Below, one piece after another: positions 2,225 to 64,000 of a DNA stretch of 64,000 nucleotides. The translations under genes and the position numbers were made by a program. Source of the DNA: Eubacteriales bacterium. Its GTDB lineage: Bacteria; Bacillota; Clostridia; Christensenellales; UBA1242. Location of the stretch: contig JAHAXB010000034.1 of NCBI GenBank assembly GCA_018384735.1, positions 19,659 to 83,658 of the forward strand, read 5' to 3'. The notes beneath the pieces were generated by a model. That model was not told the DNA's origin and ran no database searches. It was given only the letters and a program-made list of their open reading frames with translations. Each line of letters starts with the position of its first letter. The first letter of the stretch is position 1.

Positions 2225-4229
2225 TGGCACCTCCTAATTTACTCTTCACCGCTTTCGTGGCGGTATCGTCCTGCTTATTAAAGTTCGCATACTTGCTAAT
2301 GTAGTTGCGTCGGCTTTCGATATCATCACCCATCAAAGTGGTAATCAAGCGTTCCGCTTCCGCAGCATCATCCAAAGTGATACGGCACAATTTACGGGTC
2401 TTGGGGTTCATGGTTGTTTCCCACAGTTGTTCCGCGTTCATTTCACCCAAACCTTTGTAACGTTGGACGCTGGCGCCTTTAACCTTTTTCGTGACTTCTT
2501 TCAATTCGTTGTCATCGTAACAATAGTGACTGTAATCCTTTTTATAAACCTTGAATAACGGTGGCATACCCGTATAAACGTGACCTTGCGCAATTAAGTC
2601 TTTCATGTAACGGAAGAAGAAGGTCAACAGAATTGAACGAATGTGGCCACCATCTTGGTCAGCATCCGCCAAAATAATTACTTTGTGATAACGTAAATTA
2701 TCCAAGTTGAAATCTTCACCAATACCCGTACCTAATGCACCAATCAAAGTACGGAACTCTTCGTTTTCCAAAACTTGGTCAATACGTTTCTTTTCCGCAT
2801 TCAATGGTTTACCACGTAACGGCAAAATCGCTTGAATACTGCGGTCACGTCCCTGTTTTGCGGTACCACCCGCACTATCACCTTCAACGATGAAGATTTC
2901 GTTCATTTCCGGACGGCGACCACTGCAACTTGCCAACTTACCAATCAACACGCTGCCGTCAATACTGTTCTTACTACGGGCAATATCTTTGGCCTTACGC
3001 GCAGCTTCACGCACACGGGCGGCCGCTTTCGCTTTATTAATGATAATTTCTAGCAAACTTTTTTTGTCCGCTGATTTATCTGCATCCTTGAAATATTCCA
3101 ACAAACTGTTATAGGTAAAAGTTTCCACCGCAATTTTGGCTTCGGGGTTACCTAACTTAGTTTTGGTTTGTCCTTCAAACTGGACCTCTTGCATTTTAAT
3201 CGAAAGCACAGCGGTCATACCTTCACGGTAATCTTCCCCCTGTAAAGCGTTGTCTTTTTCTTTGAACAGACCGAACTGTTTACCTAATTGGTTAAAGGCA
3301 CGAGTAATCGCGCTCTTAAAACCGGTTTCGTGCGTACCACCTTCCGAAGTCGGAATGTTGTTGACGTACGAGAAAATACTTTCGACGAAACCATCGGTAT
3401 GTTGAATAGCGAAAGTAATCGGCATCTTGTCGGTTTGTCCAGCAATGACGAACGGTACTTTGTACAAAGTATTTTTACCTTCGTTCAGGTATGTAACGAA
3501 GTCCGCGACACCACCATCAAATTTATAAACACATTCGCGTGAAAATTCTGCATCATCAGGTTGAATGCGTTCATCAATCAAAGTAATTTCTGCACCCTTA
3601 TTCAGGAATGCCAATTCTTCCAAACGTTGTGAAATCACTTTGTAATCGAACTTAGCGTGATTGAACATTTCCTCGTCCGGCAAGAAATGCACGCGGGTAC
3701 CGTTCTTAATGGTGCGACCCACCACTTTTAATGGTGCATCCGCCACACCCCAGTGCATTTGTCCATCGTGTGGATCCATATGTGGCGAGAAACGCACATA
3801 GTGCTCTTTACCATCTTTATAGACGGTAACTTCGCAATAATCCGAAAGCGCGTTTACGACCGAAGCACCGACCCCGTGCAAACCACCCGAAAAACTGTAA
3901 TTGTTGTTATCAAATTTACCACCCGCGTGCAATTCGGTATAAACCATTTCGACACCGGAAATTTTTAATTCATGGTGAATATCAACCGGGATACCGCGCC
4001 CGTTATCTTCAACCGTAATGGAGTTATCGGAATGAATGATGACTAACAACTTATTACCGAAGCCGTTAGCGATTTCATCAATACCATTATCGACGATTTC
4101 CCACAACAAATGGTGCATACCCTTGGAACCCGTAGTACCAATGTACATACCGGGACGTTTACGTACTGCATCCAGCCCTTTTAATAATGTCAAATTACCA
4201 GCAGTATATGTCTGTTTTTCGTTTGCCAT
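2217..4229 (-). CDS. gyrB: Type IIA topoisomerase subunit B (GyrB/ParE family)
   Basis: Motifs [50 protein letters not shown] and [11 protein letters not shown] are present. Start chosen at ATG 4229 (MANEKQ), 7 nt after a TGgTATAAT box. The ORF-track start at 4253 lies upstream of that -10 box. Confidence 0.9.
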
Positions 4230-59858: not shown

Positions 59859-61628
59859 ATGACAAAAGATTTTGATGTAGTTGTAGTGGGTGCTGGTCAC
59901 GCAGGTTGCGAAGCCGCGGTGGCCGCCGCCCGTTTAGGAAAAAAAGTTTTGCTAACCACATTACACGAACGCAGCATTGGGATGTTACCCTGCAACCCGT
60001 CCATTGGTGGTACCGCCAAAGGTCATTTGGTTTGCGAAATTGATGCCTTAGGTGGTATCATGGGCATTTTGGCGGACAAAGCCGCCATCCAAATCAAAAT
60101 GCTGAACGCTGCCAAGGGTCCCGCCGTCCGCAGTTTACGCGCCCAAATTGATAAAGCCCGCTACCACGAAGCCATGGTAGATTTGTTAAAACACACACCC
60201 AATTTGACTTTGGCGATTGGCGAAGTCAACGGCTTAATTTGGCAAGACCAAAAAATTACCGGTGTGGTTTTTAACGGCGAGAAAATCAACTGCCGTGCCG
60301 TGGTGGTTGCAACCGGAACTTATTTGCAAAGTAAAACTTTCGTGGGTTCGGTGGTTAAATTTGAAGGTCCCACCGGCTTACCAAATTCAACCACTTTGGA
60401 ACAATCATTCATCGACATGGGCATCGAAATCCGCCGTTTCAAAACTGGTACGCCCGCACGTGTGGATATTGATTCGATTGATTACAGCCAGACTGAAATT
60501 CAAAACGGCGACGATAACATCCGTGCCTTTTCCTTCTTAGCCACGCACCCGATTAAAAACATTTGCCCGTGCTATTTAGCTTACACCAACGAAACCACGC
60601 ACCAAATCATTCGGGAACACATTAAAGAATCCGCCATGTACAGTGGCTTAATTCACGGCGTGGGACCGCGCTACTGCCCCAGCATTGAAGATAAGATTAC
60701 CCGTTTTGCGGACCGTACCCGCCACCAAACTTTCTTGGAACGCGAAAGTATGTCCAGTCGCGAAATTTACCTGCAAGGTTTGTCGTCGTCCTTACCGGCC
60801 GAAGTACAAAGCCAATTCATTCACAGTATTAAAGGTTTGGAAAATTGCCAAATCATTCGTTCGGGTTACGCCATCGAGTATACCTGCATTAACCCGTTAG
60901 AACTGTTGGCATCTTTACGCCACAAAAAATACCAAGGTTTATATTGCGCGGGTCAAATTAACGGTACCAGCGGTTACGAGGAAGCTGCGGCGCAAGGTTT
61001 GGTTGCTGGTATCAACGCATCGCGCGAAATTGACCAGTTACCACCCATGGTGTTGTCGCGTACCAACGCTTATATTGGGGTTTTGATTGATGACTTGACC
61101 ACGGAAGGCACCTTGGAACCGTACCGTATGTTTACCGCCCGTGCCGAATACCGTTTATCATTACGTCAAGATAACGCGGACGAACGCTTGACCCCCATTG
61201 GTCGCGAGGTTGGCTTGGTCGATGATACTCGCTTTGCCGCATTCACGAAGAAGCAAGCACACTTACAAAAAATCCGCGACATGGTTACCCCGAAAATCCG
61301 TCAAGAAGTTGCCAAACAGGAACACACCTTGGCGGACTTTATCAAGGACGAACCCGCGGATTTGCTCGACCAAATCACCACCGAAATCAAATACGCCGGC
61401 TACATCGCCCGTGAACAATCTGCAATTGCCGAAATCTGTCGCCAAGAAGCCACCGCTCTGTCGCCCGACATGAACTATGATGACGTCAAGGGTTTACGCC
61501 GTGAATCGCAAATTAAACTCAATCAAATTAAGCCGTTAAGCATCGGTCAAGCCGCCCGCATTTCGGGTGTCACCCCCGCCGACATTACCGTGCTGTTAAT
61601 TCATTTGCGCAAACAGCAAGAAAAGTAA
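59859..61628 (+). CDS. mnmG: tRNA uridine-5-carboxymethylaminomethyl synthesis enzyme MnmG (GidA)
   Basis: DVVVVGAGHAGCEAA FAD motif, GPRYCPSIEDK and GQINGTSGYEEAAAQG. 589 aa. Confidence 0.92.
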   Translation: MTKDFDVVVVGAGHAGCEAAVAAARLGKKVLLTTLHERSIGMLPCNPSIGGTAKGHLVCEIDALGGIMGILADKAAIQIKMLNAAKGPAVRSLRAQIDKARYHEAMVDLLKHTPNLTLAIGEVNGLIWQDQKITGVVFNGEKINCRAVVVATGTYLQSKTFVGSVVKFEGPTGLPNSTTLEQSFIDMGIEIRRFKTGTPARVDIDSIDYSQTEIQNGDDNIRAFSFLATHPIKNICPCYLAYTNETTHQIIREHIKESAMYSGLIHGVGPRYCPSIEDKITRFADRTRHQTFLERESMSSREIYLQGLSSSLPAEVQSQFIHSIKGLENCQIIRSGYAIEYTCINPLELLASLRHKKYQGLYCAGQINGTSGYEEAAAQGLVAGINASREIDQLPPMVLSRTNAYIGVLIDDLTTEGTLEPYRMFTARAEYRLSLRQDNADERLTPIGREVGLVDDTRFAAFTKKQAHLQKIRDMVTPKIRQEVAKQEHTLADFIKDEPADLLDQITTEIKYAGYIAREQSAIAEICRQEATALSPDMNYDDVKGLRRESQIKLNQIKPLSIGQAARISGVTPADITVLLIHLRKQQEK

Positions 61629-61686
61629 CAGTCAATTTGCTTCATGCTTTAATCTGTGCTAGACTGAGCCAAACAAGGAGAAAAAC

Positions 61687-63249
61687 ATGAAAGCAATACA
61701 AAAAGACAAACAAATCATTACGGAAAAAATTCATTCTGCTGATTATATTAAGTTGGACTACCACTCCACCTGGAAAAAGATGGCAGCACTTTTACAAAAA
61801 ATGGAAAGCTTGTTAATGGAATTAAAGCCATATCTTTCTGCCACTCAATTTATTGATTTGATGCGCGAAGAAAGTATTCCTACCGAACTTTGTGTTAAGA
61901 TTGAAAAAATCGTACCCAAACTTTATCGTGAGAATTCCGAAGCCGGTCGCAAAGCATTGGAATTGTATATTTTCTTGGACGAAATCGTGGTGCCAGACTT
62001 TTGTGGCGCTTGGGAATTGGAAGATTTCAGTTACACTCTGCACGCGTTGAAAAACCCGATTTTAAAAGAAGCCACCCAAAAATGCACCGCCGAAGTCCAA
62101 GCGAAGAACTACCTAAAAATTACCAAAGGCACTACCCCAGAACAAACCTTACACAACGAAGAAGTTGCCATTAACCAAAAGATTGACGAATTAAAAACAG
62201 CCTTAAAACCCGCTCTGCCCAATCGAGTTTATACCGACTTAGCCAAAGCAAGTCCGGAAGGAGCCATGGAAATTTTGGGTTGCGTAATTCCCGAATTATA
62301 CGCAGATAACAAAACCACTGCTTTCAACACCGCGATTGAGTTGCGCACGGTCATTGACTGTTTATACTACAGGCTGGTTGATAAAATTAGAGAAGAAATC
62401 GACAAAGTCGAAGAAAGCGATATTGAAGATTTATTTATTAACGAAGATTGCTGTCAACACAAATGCGATTGTTGTCATACCGAAGATTCAGACGATGAAA
62501 TTGAAATGGACGAAGAAAAGATTGCCAACCGCGAAAATTATGCTAAGGAACAAGCACTATATGACAGTTATGTTAAGGACTACACTTCTGCTGGCGAACT
62601 TTTCGATTTTGAAGATTATGAGCCATATCAAGATGTGGAAGAAAAAACTTACCAAAAGTTCTGTAAACAATTCCAACGCGAAAGCAAGCAATTACCAACA
62701 GACTGGGAAGAACGCCGTCAAGCGATTCAAGACGAAGTCAACCGATTGAAAGCAGATATCAAGCCATACTTGACCACAGCAGGCTATAAAAAATTATTAG
62801 CCACCAACAGTCCTTTTGATATCCAGTTCCTGTTACAGGAATTAGGTACGCGCCTTTTGTTATGTGGAAAAACCGATTGCGTGGTACCAATGGCTAAATT
62901 ACATGCTTACGCACAGACCATTGTCGATGATTTTGCCATGCATGATTTACCATTTGACGAATGCGAAAGTAAAGTTTTGGCGGAAGATTATTTAGGCACT
63001 TACGACAGTTATAACGATGCAGTTTATCAAAAAATGCATGAACTAAAGACCGCCCTCAAACCGTACATGGAACCAAAAAAACATCGCGAGTTTTTATTAG
63101 CTGACCCATTGAACACTTTATTAACCGTTAGTGGTTTGATTAACGAACTTTATTATGACAAACACGATAAAGCGGCAACAACGATTGCGATTGAATTAAG
63201 AAAACTGGTGCAATGTCGTGTCGTGGAATGTTACCGTTATGATTTCTAA
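61687..63249 (+). CDS. Hypothetical protein (520 aa) built from four ~75-aa helical repeats with a central acidic/Cys-rich linker
   Basis: The repeat signature ELK(T/A)xLKPY...ELY.D....(T/A)AIELR..V.C is seen four times. The linker contains DCCQHKCDCCH. SD AAGGAG. Confidence 0.6.
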   Translation: MKAIQKDKQIITEKIHSADYIKLDYHSTWKKMAALLQKMESLLMELKPYLSATQFIDLMREESIPTELCVKIEKIVPKLYRENSEAGRKALELYIFLDEIVVPDFCGAWELEDFSYTLHALKNPILKEATQKCTAEVQAKNYLKITKGTTPEQTLHNEEVAINQKIDELKTALKPALPNRVYTDLAKASPEGAMEILGCVIPELYADNKTTAFNTAIELRTVIDCLYYRLVDKIREEIDKVEESDIEDLFINEDCCQHKCDCCHTEDSDDEIEMDEEKIANRENYAKEQALYDSYVKDYTSAGELFDFEDYEPYQDVEEKTYQKFCKQFQRESKQLPTDWEERRQAIQDEVNRLKADIKPYLTTAGYKKLLATNSPFDIQFLLQELGTRLLLCGKTDCVVPMAKLHAYAQTIVDDFAMHDLPFDECESKVLAEDYLGTYDSYNDAVYQKMHELKTALKPYMEPKKHREFLLADPLNTLLTVSGLINELYYDKHDKAATTIAIELRKLVQCRVVECYRYDF

Positions 63250-63251
63250 AT

Positions 63252-63371
63252 AAAAAAACACGAGTTGCCCCGTGCTTTTCAAGCGCATACTTATGAGGCT
63301 ATGCGTTACCTAATTATTTAAGTGCTCAATATGGCTGTGCATCGCCGGTTTTTACGACTTTTCCTTGTCGT
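63252..63371 (-). ncRNA. Candidate sRNA 1 (~120 nt), family unknown
   Basis: Promoter TTGACT (63405-63400)-N16-TGgTATAAT (63383-63378). The transcript would start ACGACAAGGAAAAGUCGU and end at hairpin AGCACG-N8-CGUGUU plus U7, which also serves the convergent CDS. No credible ORF. Confidence 0.5.
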
Positions 63372-63410
63372 GCTAGTATTATACCACATACAATTTCAAA
63401 GTCAACACTA

Positions 63411-63737
63411 GAAAAAGAAATAAGCCCCCCGTCACACATGGAGGGAGGGCTAATCGTTAACCTGTGGTATTTTAACCGCCACATGCGGTAATTGTTTATT
63501 GGTCCACTGCGGCAGGACCTCTCCACTTCTTCGTAATCGTCCACTAAGGCAGGACCTCTCCAAACGTTTTTGGTAGAGCGGATTTGCGCTTTACCCAACT
63601 CTACTGGTGCACCGCGGCAGAACCTGATGTGTGTGATCTCACTTCTGCCCTCACACTGGCAGGGCTAACGCCTTGGAAGTTAGGCTACCTACCGTTCTTT
63701 CAGACTTCCGACAGGTTTTAACGACTATCCTTGTCGT
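63411..63737 (-). ncRNA. Candidate structured RNA 2 (~327 nt), family unknown
   Basis: Promoter TTGACA (63772-63767)-N18-TGtTATTTT (63748-63743). It has a 5'/3' closing helix and multiple internal helices. The terminator is AGCCCUCCCUCC...GACGGGGGGCU followed by a U-rich tail. Confidence 0.55.
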
Positions 63738-63779
63738 GTATTAAAATAACACATCACAATATATCTTGTCAACTACCAC

Positions 63780-63880
63780 AAAAAAGCAACCCCTTGCGGG
63801 ATTGCCCTATATTCACTGCTCCGTTAAAGGTCGTGCAACACCTAATTACAATCTTGCTTTTGTTAGGCCGCAAGAGCCTA
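63780..63880 (-). ncRNA. Candidate sRNA 3 (~100 nt), family unknown
   Basis: Promoter TTGACA (63913-63908)-N16-TGgTAATAT (63891-63886). Terminator is GCAAUCCC-GCAA-GGGGUUGC followed by U6 (63780-63805). Confidence 0.5.
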
Positions 63881-63915
63881 TGGCTATATTACCACAAATA
63901 ATTTTAATGTCAACA

Positions 63916-64000
63916 TTAAAGTTCTTTCAGGCGTTGGGTTAATAAATTTTTGGTCGTACCGGCTTTCATTTTAGAAACAAAGTCGAACAACAAAATGGTT
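63916..64000 (-). CDS. C-terminal end of an unidentified minus-strand CDS entering from the right edge
   Basis: This is the only frame open to the window edge. Manual translation ...TILLFDFVSKMKAGTTKNLLTQRLKEL, stop TAA at 63918-63916. Confidence 0.3.
   Translation of the reverse strand, partial: TILLFDFVSKMKAGTTKNLLTQRLKEL

Follow-up and report, generated by a model that had tools for sequence, protein, structure and literature searches.

Toxin-less RNA cassettes related to type III antitoxins in an accessory slot of a Clostridia chromosome

We examined a 64,000-nucleotide (nt) stretch of an Eubacteriales genome (assembly GCA_018384735.1, contig JAHAXB010000034.1; hereafter the window, meaning the whole stretch). 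At positions 63252-63915 its minus strand carries three RNA units, numbered 3, 2 and 1 in the direction of transcription, each running from its own promoter to its own terminator. We consider it probable that the units are stand-alone type III antitoxin RNA genes (the ToxI/antiQ class) that comprise two repeat families, retain their own promoters and terminators, lack a ToxN gene, and likely act as antidotes in trans. Judged by sequence comparison, units 2 and 3 are clearly recognizable as homologues of antitoxin RNAs that are linked to toxins elsewhere. In complete loci of both families the same RNAs, flanked by promoter and terminator, immediately precede a gene for a ToxN/AbiQ endoribonuclease, and the window holds the cassettes of the two families that are found side by side on another contig (L080), minus the toxins. 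There is no toxin gene within 80 kb, a span reached by including a matching Logan contig (L001) that runs 16 kb further than the window, and the units lie in accessory DNA. An initial annotation, made from the letters of the window alone, had implied that the RNAs are unclassifiable and possibly housekeeping-like, a view that the homology of units 2 and 3 to RNAs preceding ToxN/AbiQ genes replaces.

The three promoters are the top three sigma70-type sites in a consensus scan of the minus strand from 62000 to 64000. That of unit 3 (63886-63913) has TTGACA, a 16-nt spacer and TG-n-TAATAT (10/12 consensus positions); that of unit 2 (63743-63772) has TTGACA, 18 nt and TG-n-TATTTT (10/12); and that of unit 1 (63378-63405) has TTGACT, 16 nt and TG-n-TATAAT (11/12). 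The unit 1 and unit 3 promoters are paralogous (79% identity over 34 nt; repeat family D2), and the unit 3 promoter motif TTTGTGGTA is seen again in the promoters of toxin-linked arrays. RNA folding shows that all three units end in a G+C hairpin and a U-tract. A terminator pattern scan called that of unit 3 only (63783-63808, also found by folding); the unit 2 terminator (63412-63450), an imperfect G+C hairpin followed by UUAUUUCUUUUU, was missed by the scan and recognized by folding, as was that of unit 1 (63252-63275). The latter adjoins the stop codon (63249) of a convergent gene for a 520-amino-acid (aa) protein and could serve both directions, that gene included. The resulting RNAs are ~100 nt (unit 3, 63779-63880: a ~35-nt 5′ leader, one ToxI-like repeat and the terminator), ~326 nt (unit 2, 63412-63737: a 5′ hairpin module, a conserved leader, two degenerate and two canonical repeats, an extra hairpin and the terminator) and ~120 nt (unit 1, 63252-63372: a 5′ hairpin module, two diverged ToxI-like repeats and the terminator). 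Each U-tract is separated from the next -35 by 5-10 nt, and the unit 2 RNA folds better than shuffled sequences (z -2.6).

This anatomy had been proposed in the initial annotation, which listed three minus-strand promoters with TG-extended -10 elements, one rho-independent terminator per unit, tight packing, and lengths of about 100, 327 and 120 nt, and our analysis agrees with it. The absence of a credible open reading frame (ORF) was likewise borne out: the longest in 63252-63915 has 90 aa and a TTG start and extends over the junction of units 2 and 1, taking in the terminator of the former and the promoter of the latter, and neither it nor the plus-strand ORFs match Pfam. No known RNA had been recognized, and the Rfam search of the region also returned no family at the gathering threshold, with noise at E<=10 (JA04, PK-IAV, U4atac, HCV CRE). 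Tandem Repeats Finder reported no array in the region at its thresholds, and the RNA region had no blastn match among phage and plasmid sequences. Two features had been overlooked: the repeats of unit 2, and the relationship of the promoters of units 1 and 3 as paralogues.

A repeat search within unit 2 uncovered three copies of a 29-nt repeat (family D1), two of them canonical with a 37-nt period. The canonical pair, which we call type A (63490-63563), occupies the 3′ part of the unit, and each repeat consists of GGAGAGGUCCUGCCnnAGUGGAC plus a spacer (GGAGAGGUCCUGCC-nn-AGUGGAC followed by an A-rich spacer). A hidden Markov model (HMM) trained on repeats outside the window only, mostly from toxin-linked arrays, matches both copies (63563-63527, E 5e-9; 63526-63490, E 1.7e-8), which share 88-91% identity (blastn) with arrays on L103, L108 and L114. 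Further upstream, two CUGCC hairpins (63606-63665) look like degenerate type-A repeats, as judged from motif spacing: GCCC-UGCCAGUGUGA-GGGC at 63647-63665 and GGUUC-UGCCGCGGU-GCACC at 63606-63624. The CUGCC hairpins are spaced by 42 nt and then by 68 nt, which equals 36 nt plus an inserted hairpin of 32 nt (63573-63604). These degenerate copies reach an HMM E of only 3.5, and one of them keeps its stem via a U-A to C-G change. For type-A repeats in general one hairpin is supported, and no second pseudoknot stem was identified.

The linkage of this family to toxins is seen in a metagenome scan with the pattern GAGAGGTCCTGCC-n(1,2)-AGTGGAC, which found 21 loci. Seven contigs (L103, L104, L106, L108, L109, L110, and L112) have a TTGACA/TG-TATAAT promoter, repeats (one in L104, 2-3 in tandem in the others, with a period of 37-38 nt), a terminator, and then, within ~100 nt of the terminator, a ToxN homologue that is 47-59% identical to the L080 toxin described below. 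L114 has a type-A array without a toxin, and in L115 the homologous RNA lies beside the C-terminal end of a toxin only. Single type-A hairpins (GGAGAGGUCCUGCCnnAGUGGAC) also occur in phage-like contigs (L096 945-966, L097 343-364, L098 279-300, L100 53-74, and the IMG/VR contigs L020, L024, L026, and L094). There they often lie within tRNA clusters (tRNA-Pro, Leu, Ser, Trp, Lys) and are without a ToxN gene; we regard these hairpins as candidate phage pseudo-antitoxins.

Relatives of the window units came from a pattern for the 5′ hairpin shared by units 1 and 2, which hit 22 genome contigs with many chance matches inside coding regions. Two of the 22, L080 and L085, are true homologues of the window units. 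L080, from an uncultured Eubacteriales, is a conjugative element, because it encodes a TraG-type ATPase, an integrase, and a type IV secretion system pilin. On it, a promoter, a unit 2 homologue and a terminator lie directly upstream of a gene for a 260-aa ToxN/AbiQ-family protein (Pfam PF13958, 1.3e-31; PADLOC AbiQ, 3e-31; PDB 4ATO, 4.9e-16). About 250 nt past the stop codon of this toxin follow two cassettes, each with a promoter, a unit 3 homologue and a terminator, and then a second ToxN-family gene (PF13958, 8.5e-31). L085, a 4.3-kb contig, carries a unit 2 homologue followed by toxin codons 4-54 only. On the same contig, RNAs resembling units 3 and 1 are fused to one another, and another cassette of the unit 3 kind is present. 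The promoter-proximal region and leader of unit 2 (63669-63751) are common to the antitoxin RNAs of both contigs, with 87% identity to L080 1757-1835 and 91% to L085 3348-3280 (blastn), and the first ~70 nt of unit 2 (the 5′ module and a GGAAGU...ACUUCC stem) are shared with these two only.

Two further features were seen in the toxin-linked loci. Nearly all of their promoter-RNA-terminator cassettes are bordered by the 18-bp palindrome TGTAAAGACATCTTTACA (L080 1672-1690, 2724-2741, 2906-2923, and 3031-3047; L085 2777-2791, 3432-3449, and 3552-3566; L116 1938-1953 and 2349-2366; L117 2081-2098 and 2310-2327). Possible roles for the palindrome, which does not occur in the window cluster, are those of an operator or of a recombination site. 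L085 also has two copies (2670-2790 and 3455-3560) of another promoter- and terminator-delimited small RNA (ACUGGGAAUGGCAGUUAAMCCAUUCGUUUUCU...), interleaved with the antitoxin cassettes and without an Rfam match above noise.

Unit 3 represents the second family. Its 36-nt repeat AGGUGUUGCACGACCUUUAACGGAGCAGUGAAUAU, here termed type B (63807-63845), retains the pseudoknot stems of the family and matches, with E 4.4e-12, an HMM made from the toxin-linked repeats of L080, L116, and L117 only. Positions 63843-63780 are 95% identical to L116 2408-2471 and to L085 3619-3682 (blastn). In L116, whose toxin is 65% identical to the second L080 toxin, a promoter, one type-B repeat and a terminator precede ToxN; in L117 (toxin 58% identical to the same protein) two tandem 36-nt type-B repeats and a terminator do so. 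The type-B pseudoknot consists of two interleaved 3-bp stems, GGU:ACC and UGC:GCA, in agreement with the ToxI template of Blower et al. (PMC3401426). Over 11 repeats, a number that limits the power of the comparison, 98.5% of the cells in these stems are paired and compensatory changes occur at two pairs. For Pectobacterium, the ToxI repeat has been published as AGGTGATTTGCTACCTTTAAGTGCAGCTAGAAATTC (PMC4010927), and it shares AGGUG, ACCUUUAA and GCAG with the type-B family.

The two repeats of unit 1 (63275-63348) are diverged and resemble type B. The compensatory changes just mentioned (GGC:GCC; CGCAU:AUGCG) fall in these copies, so that both pseudoknot stems are kept in repeat a (63313-63348, GGCGAUGCACAGCC...GAGCAC) and repeat b (63275-63311, AGGUAACGCAUAGCC...AUGCGC). 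A 34-nt stretch at the start of unit 1 (63370-63337) is 97% identical to L085 2905-2938, and the repeat of this L085 RNA gives a weak match to the type-B HMM (E 0.013).

Searches for a toxin at the window locus were negative. Neither L080 toxin found anything in the window or L001 by tblastn, and an HMM of 23 ToxN homologues, run against six-frame translations of both, returned nothing at E<=10; no dedicated models for the CptN and TenpN families formed part of the search. The same HMM does recover the toxin remnants beside the homologous RNAs in L085 and L115. In the window, each unit is followed by the next promoter or by the convergent gene. The type-A and type-B HMMs have no further significant match in the 80 kb.

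In type III toxin-antitoxin systems, which serve in phage defence and plasmid addiction, a promoter drives the antitoxin repeats and a terminator limits transcription of the toxin gene; ToxN cuts the precursor into single repeats, which bind the toxin and close it into an inactive assembly (PMC3401426, PMC5772629, PMC3475682). Single ToxI repeats suffice against ToxN, and a phage escapes ToxIN via pseudo-ToxI repeats that have no toxin (PMC3401426, PMC3475682). We infer that the window units would be transcribed constitutively and, following the established mechanism, would be cut at A-rich junctions into ~36-nt pseudoknot or hairpin repeats that block the toxin active site. The predicted cut junctions are GAAGAA, AAUAAAC and GUGAA^UAU, perhaps joined by UAAAA^CC of the 5′ module. 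The repeats (two of type A in unit 2, one of type B in unit 3, and two like type B in unit 1) would then act as antidotes or decoys in trans. They would be directed at ToxN-family RNases, whether encoded elsewhere or brought in by conjugative elements such as L080, and the outcome would be blunted post-segregational killing or abortive infection.

The cluster occupies a variable position on the chromosome. Upstream on the same strand are genes for a class I lysyl-tRNA synthetase (lysK) and a 181-aa protein, the latter ending 3 nt before the unit 3 -35, and the 520-aa gene (61687-63249, plus strand) converges on unit 1. Genes for GerA-type germination proteins lie nearby, consistent with a spore-forming Firmicute. 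Relatives with 67-93% identity in the 181-aa protein keep the order lysK, 181-aa gene, mnmG, and the slot between mnmG and the 181-aa gene varies among them (L002, L005-L016), being empty or filled with unrelated cargo; in close relatives this includes a histidine phosphatase, a zinc-ribbon protein with a YbaK-like protein, and other small genes. When the flanks are aligned to L006, where the site is empty, window positions 61616-63914, an accessory block made up of the 520-aa gene and the three RNA units, are seen to stand in place of 41 nt. Nothing similar to the RNA region was found in the loci of the relatives (L002-L016) or near homologues of the 520-aa gene (L017-L019). Since the slot is variable and the relatives are without the RNAs, the cluster is accessory DNA in a hypervariable hot spot and not a conserved chromosomal RNA locus. 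Neither Pfam nor PADLOC matches the 520-aa protein itself, whose sequence combines several internally repeated helical segments (ELKTALKP...) with a centre rich in Cys, Asp and Glu. It has no relatives other than proteins of 745-789 aa with ~35% identity in variable contexts, one of which (L017) is encoded ~0.4 kb upstream of a gene for an Mrr-like nuclease.

Several observations weigh against functional trans antidotes. Selectivity for the cognate toxin has been reported for type III antitoxins (PMC5086642), and therefore protection in trans needs a closely matching toxin. No partner toxin was identified in the window and L001, a search of 80 kb that did not extend to the rest of the genome. 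The repeat of unit 3 aligns to the canonical Pectobacterium ToxI with only p~0.01 against shuffles, and direct alignments of units 1 and 2 to it are not significant against shuffles. Repeat a of unit 1 reaches E 0.28 after the L085 intermediate is added to the type-B HMM, and repeat b is missed by sequence HMMs. Unit 1, placed in the family mainly by its structure and one intermediate sequence, is thus the least secure member. About 170 nt of unit 2 (the leader and the inserted hairpin) and the 5′ module fall outside the antitoxin model. That the units are so similar to toxin-linked copies could be due to recent acquisition, not selection.

The leading alternative we regard as possible though distinctly less likely: the units may be non-functional relics of the dual toxIN module of a conjugative element that lost both toxins and whose RNA cassettes have not yet decayed. 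The toxin-less or truncated copies of L085, L114 (without a toxin), and L115 show that such an origin by decay occurs, and the window copies may be recent relics of this kind. Decay is favoured by these three contigs, by the location of the block in a hot spot with rapidly changing cargo, and by the degeneracy of the repeats, which affects two of the four in unit 2 and the diverged pair in unit 1. On the other side, function is favoured by the near-consensus state of all three promoters and the integrity of all three terminators, by the absence of toxin debris between units that follow one another so closely, and by the divergence of unit 1, which has proceeded through compensatory changes that preserve both of its stems.

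The 5′ hairpin of units 1 and 2 is a subject of its own. The unit 2 copy (63714-63737) is ACGAC-AAGGAUA-GUCGU followed by UAAAACC (ACGACAAGGAUAGUCGUUAAAACC in full), and the unit 1 copy (63347-63371) is ACGAC-AAGGAAAA-GUCGU followed by AAAAACC (ACGACAAGGAAAAGUCGUAAAAACC). The initial annotation had called these hairpins identical. The stem is indeed the same and the motif is a real structured one, but the loop of unit 1 has 8 nt rather than 7 and the tail differs at one base, so the consensus string given for both does not fit unit 1. It had also suggested, as an alternative to a shared protein- or ribosome-binding module, that the hairpin marks units 1 and 2 as paralogues; their repeats belong to different families, and the hairpin is portable and found in phage 5′ untranslated regions (UTRs) as well. 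A covariance model (R1) finds exactly two copies in the window, with 36.4 bits at 63710-63740 (unit 2) and 39.1 bits at 63343-63374 (unit 1), and none in the canonical toxIN loci L102-L117. Since it occurs in window units 1 and 2, L080, and L085 and has no copy in L102-L117, the module is independent of antitoxin function and is, from these sequence comparisons, best described as a portable RNA motif attached to some cassettes.

Outside bacterial genomes, the hairpin pattern matched 45 viral contigs, mostly in 5′ UTRs, where chance would account for a few. Across viral and bacterial instances the module has a stem of 3-6 bp, a loop of the AAGGAAAA type and a (U)UAAAACC tail. Its stems vary among copies (GAC/GUC, GUC/GAC, GGC/GCC, CUC/GAG, GAG/CUC), with compensatory changes at 4/5 pairs and a score that 0/500 shuffles reach, in a set whose extra copies were gathered with a filter of at least three paired bases. 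Most instances lie a few to ~35 nt downstream of a sigma70-like -10 and immediately ahead of a ribosome-binding site. The next gene encodes either a small phage protein, in some cases one of a family with 35-38 residues, or a protein of 115-132 aa that looks winged-helix-like in its C-terminal part (one with a weak, sub-threshold Pfam helix-turn-helix match). The module also heads noncoding stretches with several copies (L040, L065, L081). A mini-pseudoknot between the loop GG and the tail CC, both of which are invariant, is possible. A hairpin at the extreme 5′ end of a transcript stabilises RNA in Firmicutes, and the module would do so for units 1 and 2. Its tail contains an A-run of the kind cut by ToxN/AbiQ enzymes, and in unit 1 it sits before the first repeat, at the position of an inter-repeat junction. 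Reported ToxN/AbiQ cut sites are AA^AU, A^AAAA, and A^AAA (PMC7781912), and by analogy the UAAAACC tail, which resembles these motifs, may supply a processing site.

Other identities considered for the module fared poorly. Its resemblance to the nexus (AAGGCUAGUCCGUUAUCAAC) of the trans-activating RNA of CRISPR systems (clustered regularly interspaced short palindromic repeats) is superficial, with AAGG in the loop rather than the stem and no CRISPR context. A preQ1-I-like riboswitch is a possible but unsupported identity, there being no Rfam hit and a heterogeneous set of gene contexts (small phage proteins, winged-helix proteins, noncoding RNAs). For unit 2, a group I or GIR1-like ribozyme was rejected: GIR1 matches occur only in RNA-virus-like contigs that have the module, and none in the window. 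A literature search on the repeat and motif sequences returned no relevant paper.

Three sets of viral contigs with the module deserve mention in their own right. Small RNA-virus-like genomes in IMG/VR (L053 2153-2325, L070 534-706, L035 635-467, L060 1984-1816) encode a tombus-like RNA-dependent RNA polymerase (with a GDD motif) and a capsid ORF, and the region between the two genes has a full-length match to the GIR1 lariat-capping ribozyme (scoring 50.6 bits with E 8e-9, and 25.8 bits, where the gathering score is 100). This match begins inside the 5′ hairpin motif and covers the region aligned to the branch site, 2-3 nt before the capsid AUG. The sequence suggests a possible lariat-capping-like or group-I-like ribozyme with a part in making or capping a capsid mRNA; we found no paper on a GIR1-like element in a polymerase-capsid intergenic region. 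A 26-kb IMG/VR contig (L040, reverse strand 620-860), which encodes proteins like family-B DNA polymerase and single-stranded DNA-binding protein, has a promoter followed by 4-5 heterogeneous hairpin modules ending in (U)AAAACC, two of them with AAGGAAAA loops, and no ORF for ~800 nt after, resembling an array-like noncoding RNA. Proteins of the 35-38-residue family (KGYxVPNGYxGYIS...YxLFATEQDYLEYI) are encoded directly downstream of the module in IMG/VR contigs of 12-218 kb (L031, L034, L044, L047, L052, L056, L057, L059, L062, L063, L071) and have no Pfam match.

A more far-reaching version of the antidote reading is, in our estimate, unlikely. It holds that the cluster is a selected, free-standing immunity array whose antidotes of two families, matching the two toxIN loci of L080, would disarm incoming ToxN and thereby counter addiction or abortive infection. 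The 5′ hairpin and UAAAACC would then be a new portable module, possibly a mini-pseudoknot resistant to 5′-exonucleases, a decoy for ToxN or a processing signal, reused at transcript 5′ ends by phages, conjugative elements and small RNA viruses.

It is improbable that the units are independent regulatory small RNAs built on antitoxin-derived folds and acting by base-pairing, by protein sequestration (for example as a CsrA-type sponge via the AAGGA loop) or by ribosome binding. The hairpin loop, read as ACAAGGA, fits ACARGGA, the CsrA core obtained by systematic evolution of ligands by exponential enrichment; the module adjoins ribosome-binding sites in many phage 5′ UTRs, and the stable folding of unit 2 would suit such a role. 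However, each unit bearing the module has one AAGGA hairpin, as opposed to the multiple GGA hairpins of Csr/Rsm sponges, and the other hairpin loops read UGCCnnAGU. There is no match to a Csr/Rsm family in the window or to any Rfam small RNA family, no target complementarity was identified, and the best-conserved parts of the units are the antitoxin repeats. We therefore set the CsrA sponge aside.

That the RNAs serve a neighbour, as antisense or 3′-end regulators of the 520-aa gene or as antitoxins of the 181-aa protein in a locus of reversed order, is barely credible: the unit 1 terminator does adjoin the 520-aa stop codon, the 181-aa gene lies just ahead of unit 3 on the same strand and its product has a ToxN-like size, and there is one report of toxN and toxI in reversed order (PMC3401426), yet the comparative data are strongly against it, with no related RNA near the 520-aa homologues, a 181-aa gene that is syntenic and conserved in all relatives without the RNAs, and no ToxN HMM hit or Pfam match for either protein. 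The 181-aa protein has a single weak PADLOC match, which is not to a toxin (RT_UG13a, E 0.0054).

The class of RNA to which we assign the units is already known. A toxin-less, separately promoted, multi-family array of chromosomal cassettes did not turn up in word searches of PMC3401426, PMC5086642 and PMC12283969, a survey of the literature that is not exhaustive. Type III systems are defined and searched for via their toxin genes, so antitoxin RNAs without a toxin are invisible to current surveys. If active, stand-alone chromosomal ToxI-like cassettes would be anti-addiction or anti-defence elements that work at the RNA level, would influence the range of plasmids, conjugative elements and phages that a lineage of gut Clostridia can lose or tolerate, and would extend the idea of phage pseudo-ToxI to bacterial chromosomes. 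The analysis yields two repeat families with directly testable toxin partners. The 5′ hairpin, a widespread motif with a covarying stem in the 5′ UTRs of phages and mobile elements, is apparently uncatalogued apart from a weak resemblance to GP20-b; it merits separate study.

The resemblance to GP20-b (RF03003) concerns its second hairpin, GGUG-AAGGCAAC-CACC followed by UAAAAAAGC, which like the module has a stem of 4-5 bp, an 8-nt AAGGnAAn loop and an A-rich tail. The only Rfam resemblance was that of a relative on L065 to this hairpin (22.8 bits, 36.2 required); the window has no GP20-b hit at E<=10 and lacks its first hairpin. No gene of the GP20 family was identified beside the module, one nearby candidate (L068) being without a Pfam match.

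Type III toxin-antitoxin loci are recognized by tandem short direct repeats (~31-46 nt), a promoter at their start, a palindromic terminator directly after them, and a ToxN/CptN/TenpN-type gene immediately downstream (Blower et al., 2012; PMC3401426). The window has such repeats, with a single one in unit 3 as in the toxin-linked L116. All three units have the terminator, and all have the promoter, with the 5′ module or leader in between in units 1 and 2. The downstream gene is absent by ToxN HMM and tblastn in the 80 kb. As for the marks of the ToxI family, homology to repeats that precede ToxN is found for units 2 and 3 and is weak for unit 1, and two interleaved pseudoknot stems of 3-4 bp are present in the type-B repeats.

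Among individual systems, the ToxIN loci of Pectobacterium atrosepticum pECA1039, Bacillus thuringiensis pAW63 and E. coli are like the window units in having a sigma70 promoter, 36-37-nt repeats and an intrinsic terminator, and the unit 3 repeat shares with them AGGUG...ACCUUUAA...GCAG and the interleaved two-stem pseudoknot pattern. In contrast to ToxIN, no toxN follows any window unit, repeat numbers are low (one; two plus two degenerate; two diverged), each family has its own cassette with the two families concatenated, the 5′ hairpin module is an addition at the head of units 1 and 2, and the leader of unit 2 measures ~70 nt. The AbiQ/antiQ system of Lactococcus lactis is related through the toxins, since the AbiQ model recognizes those that accompany the homologous RNAs (PADLOC, 3e-31). 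Its antiQ has 35-nt repeats and a terminator and is cut at an A-rich site, A^AAA (PMC7781912), whereas the repeat sequence in the window differs and the toxin is missing. The pseudo-ToxI of phage PhiTE (PMC3475682) likewise consists of antitoxin-like repeats without a toxin and is an antidote in trans. There it allows a phage to escape host defence, whereas the window repeats lie on a bacterial chromosome, in three separately promoted units of two families.

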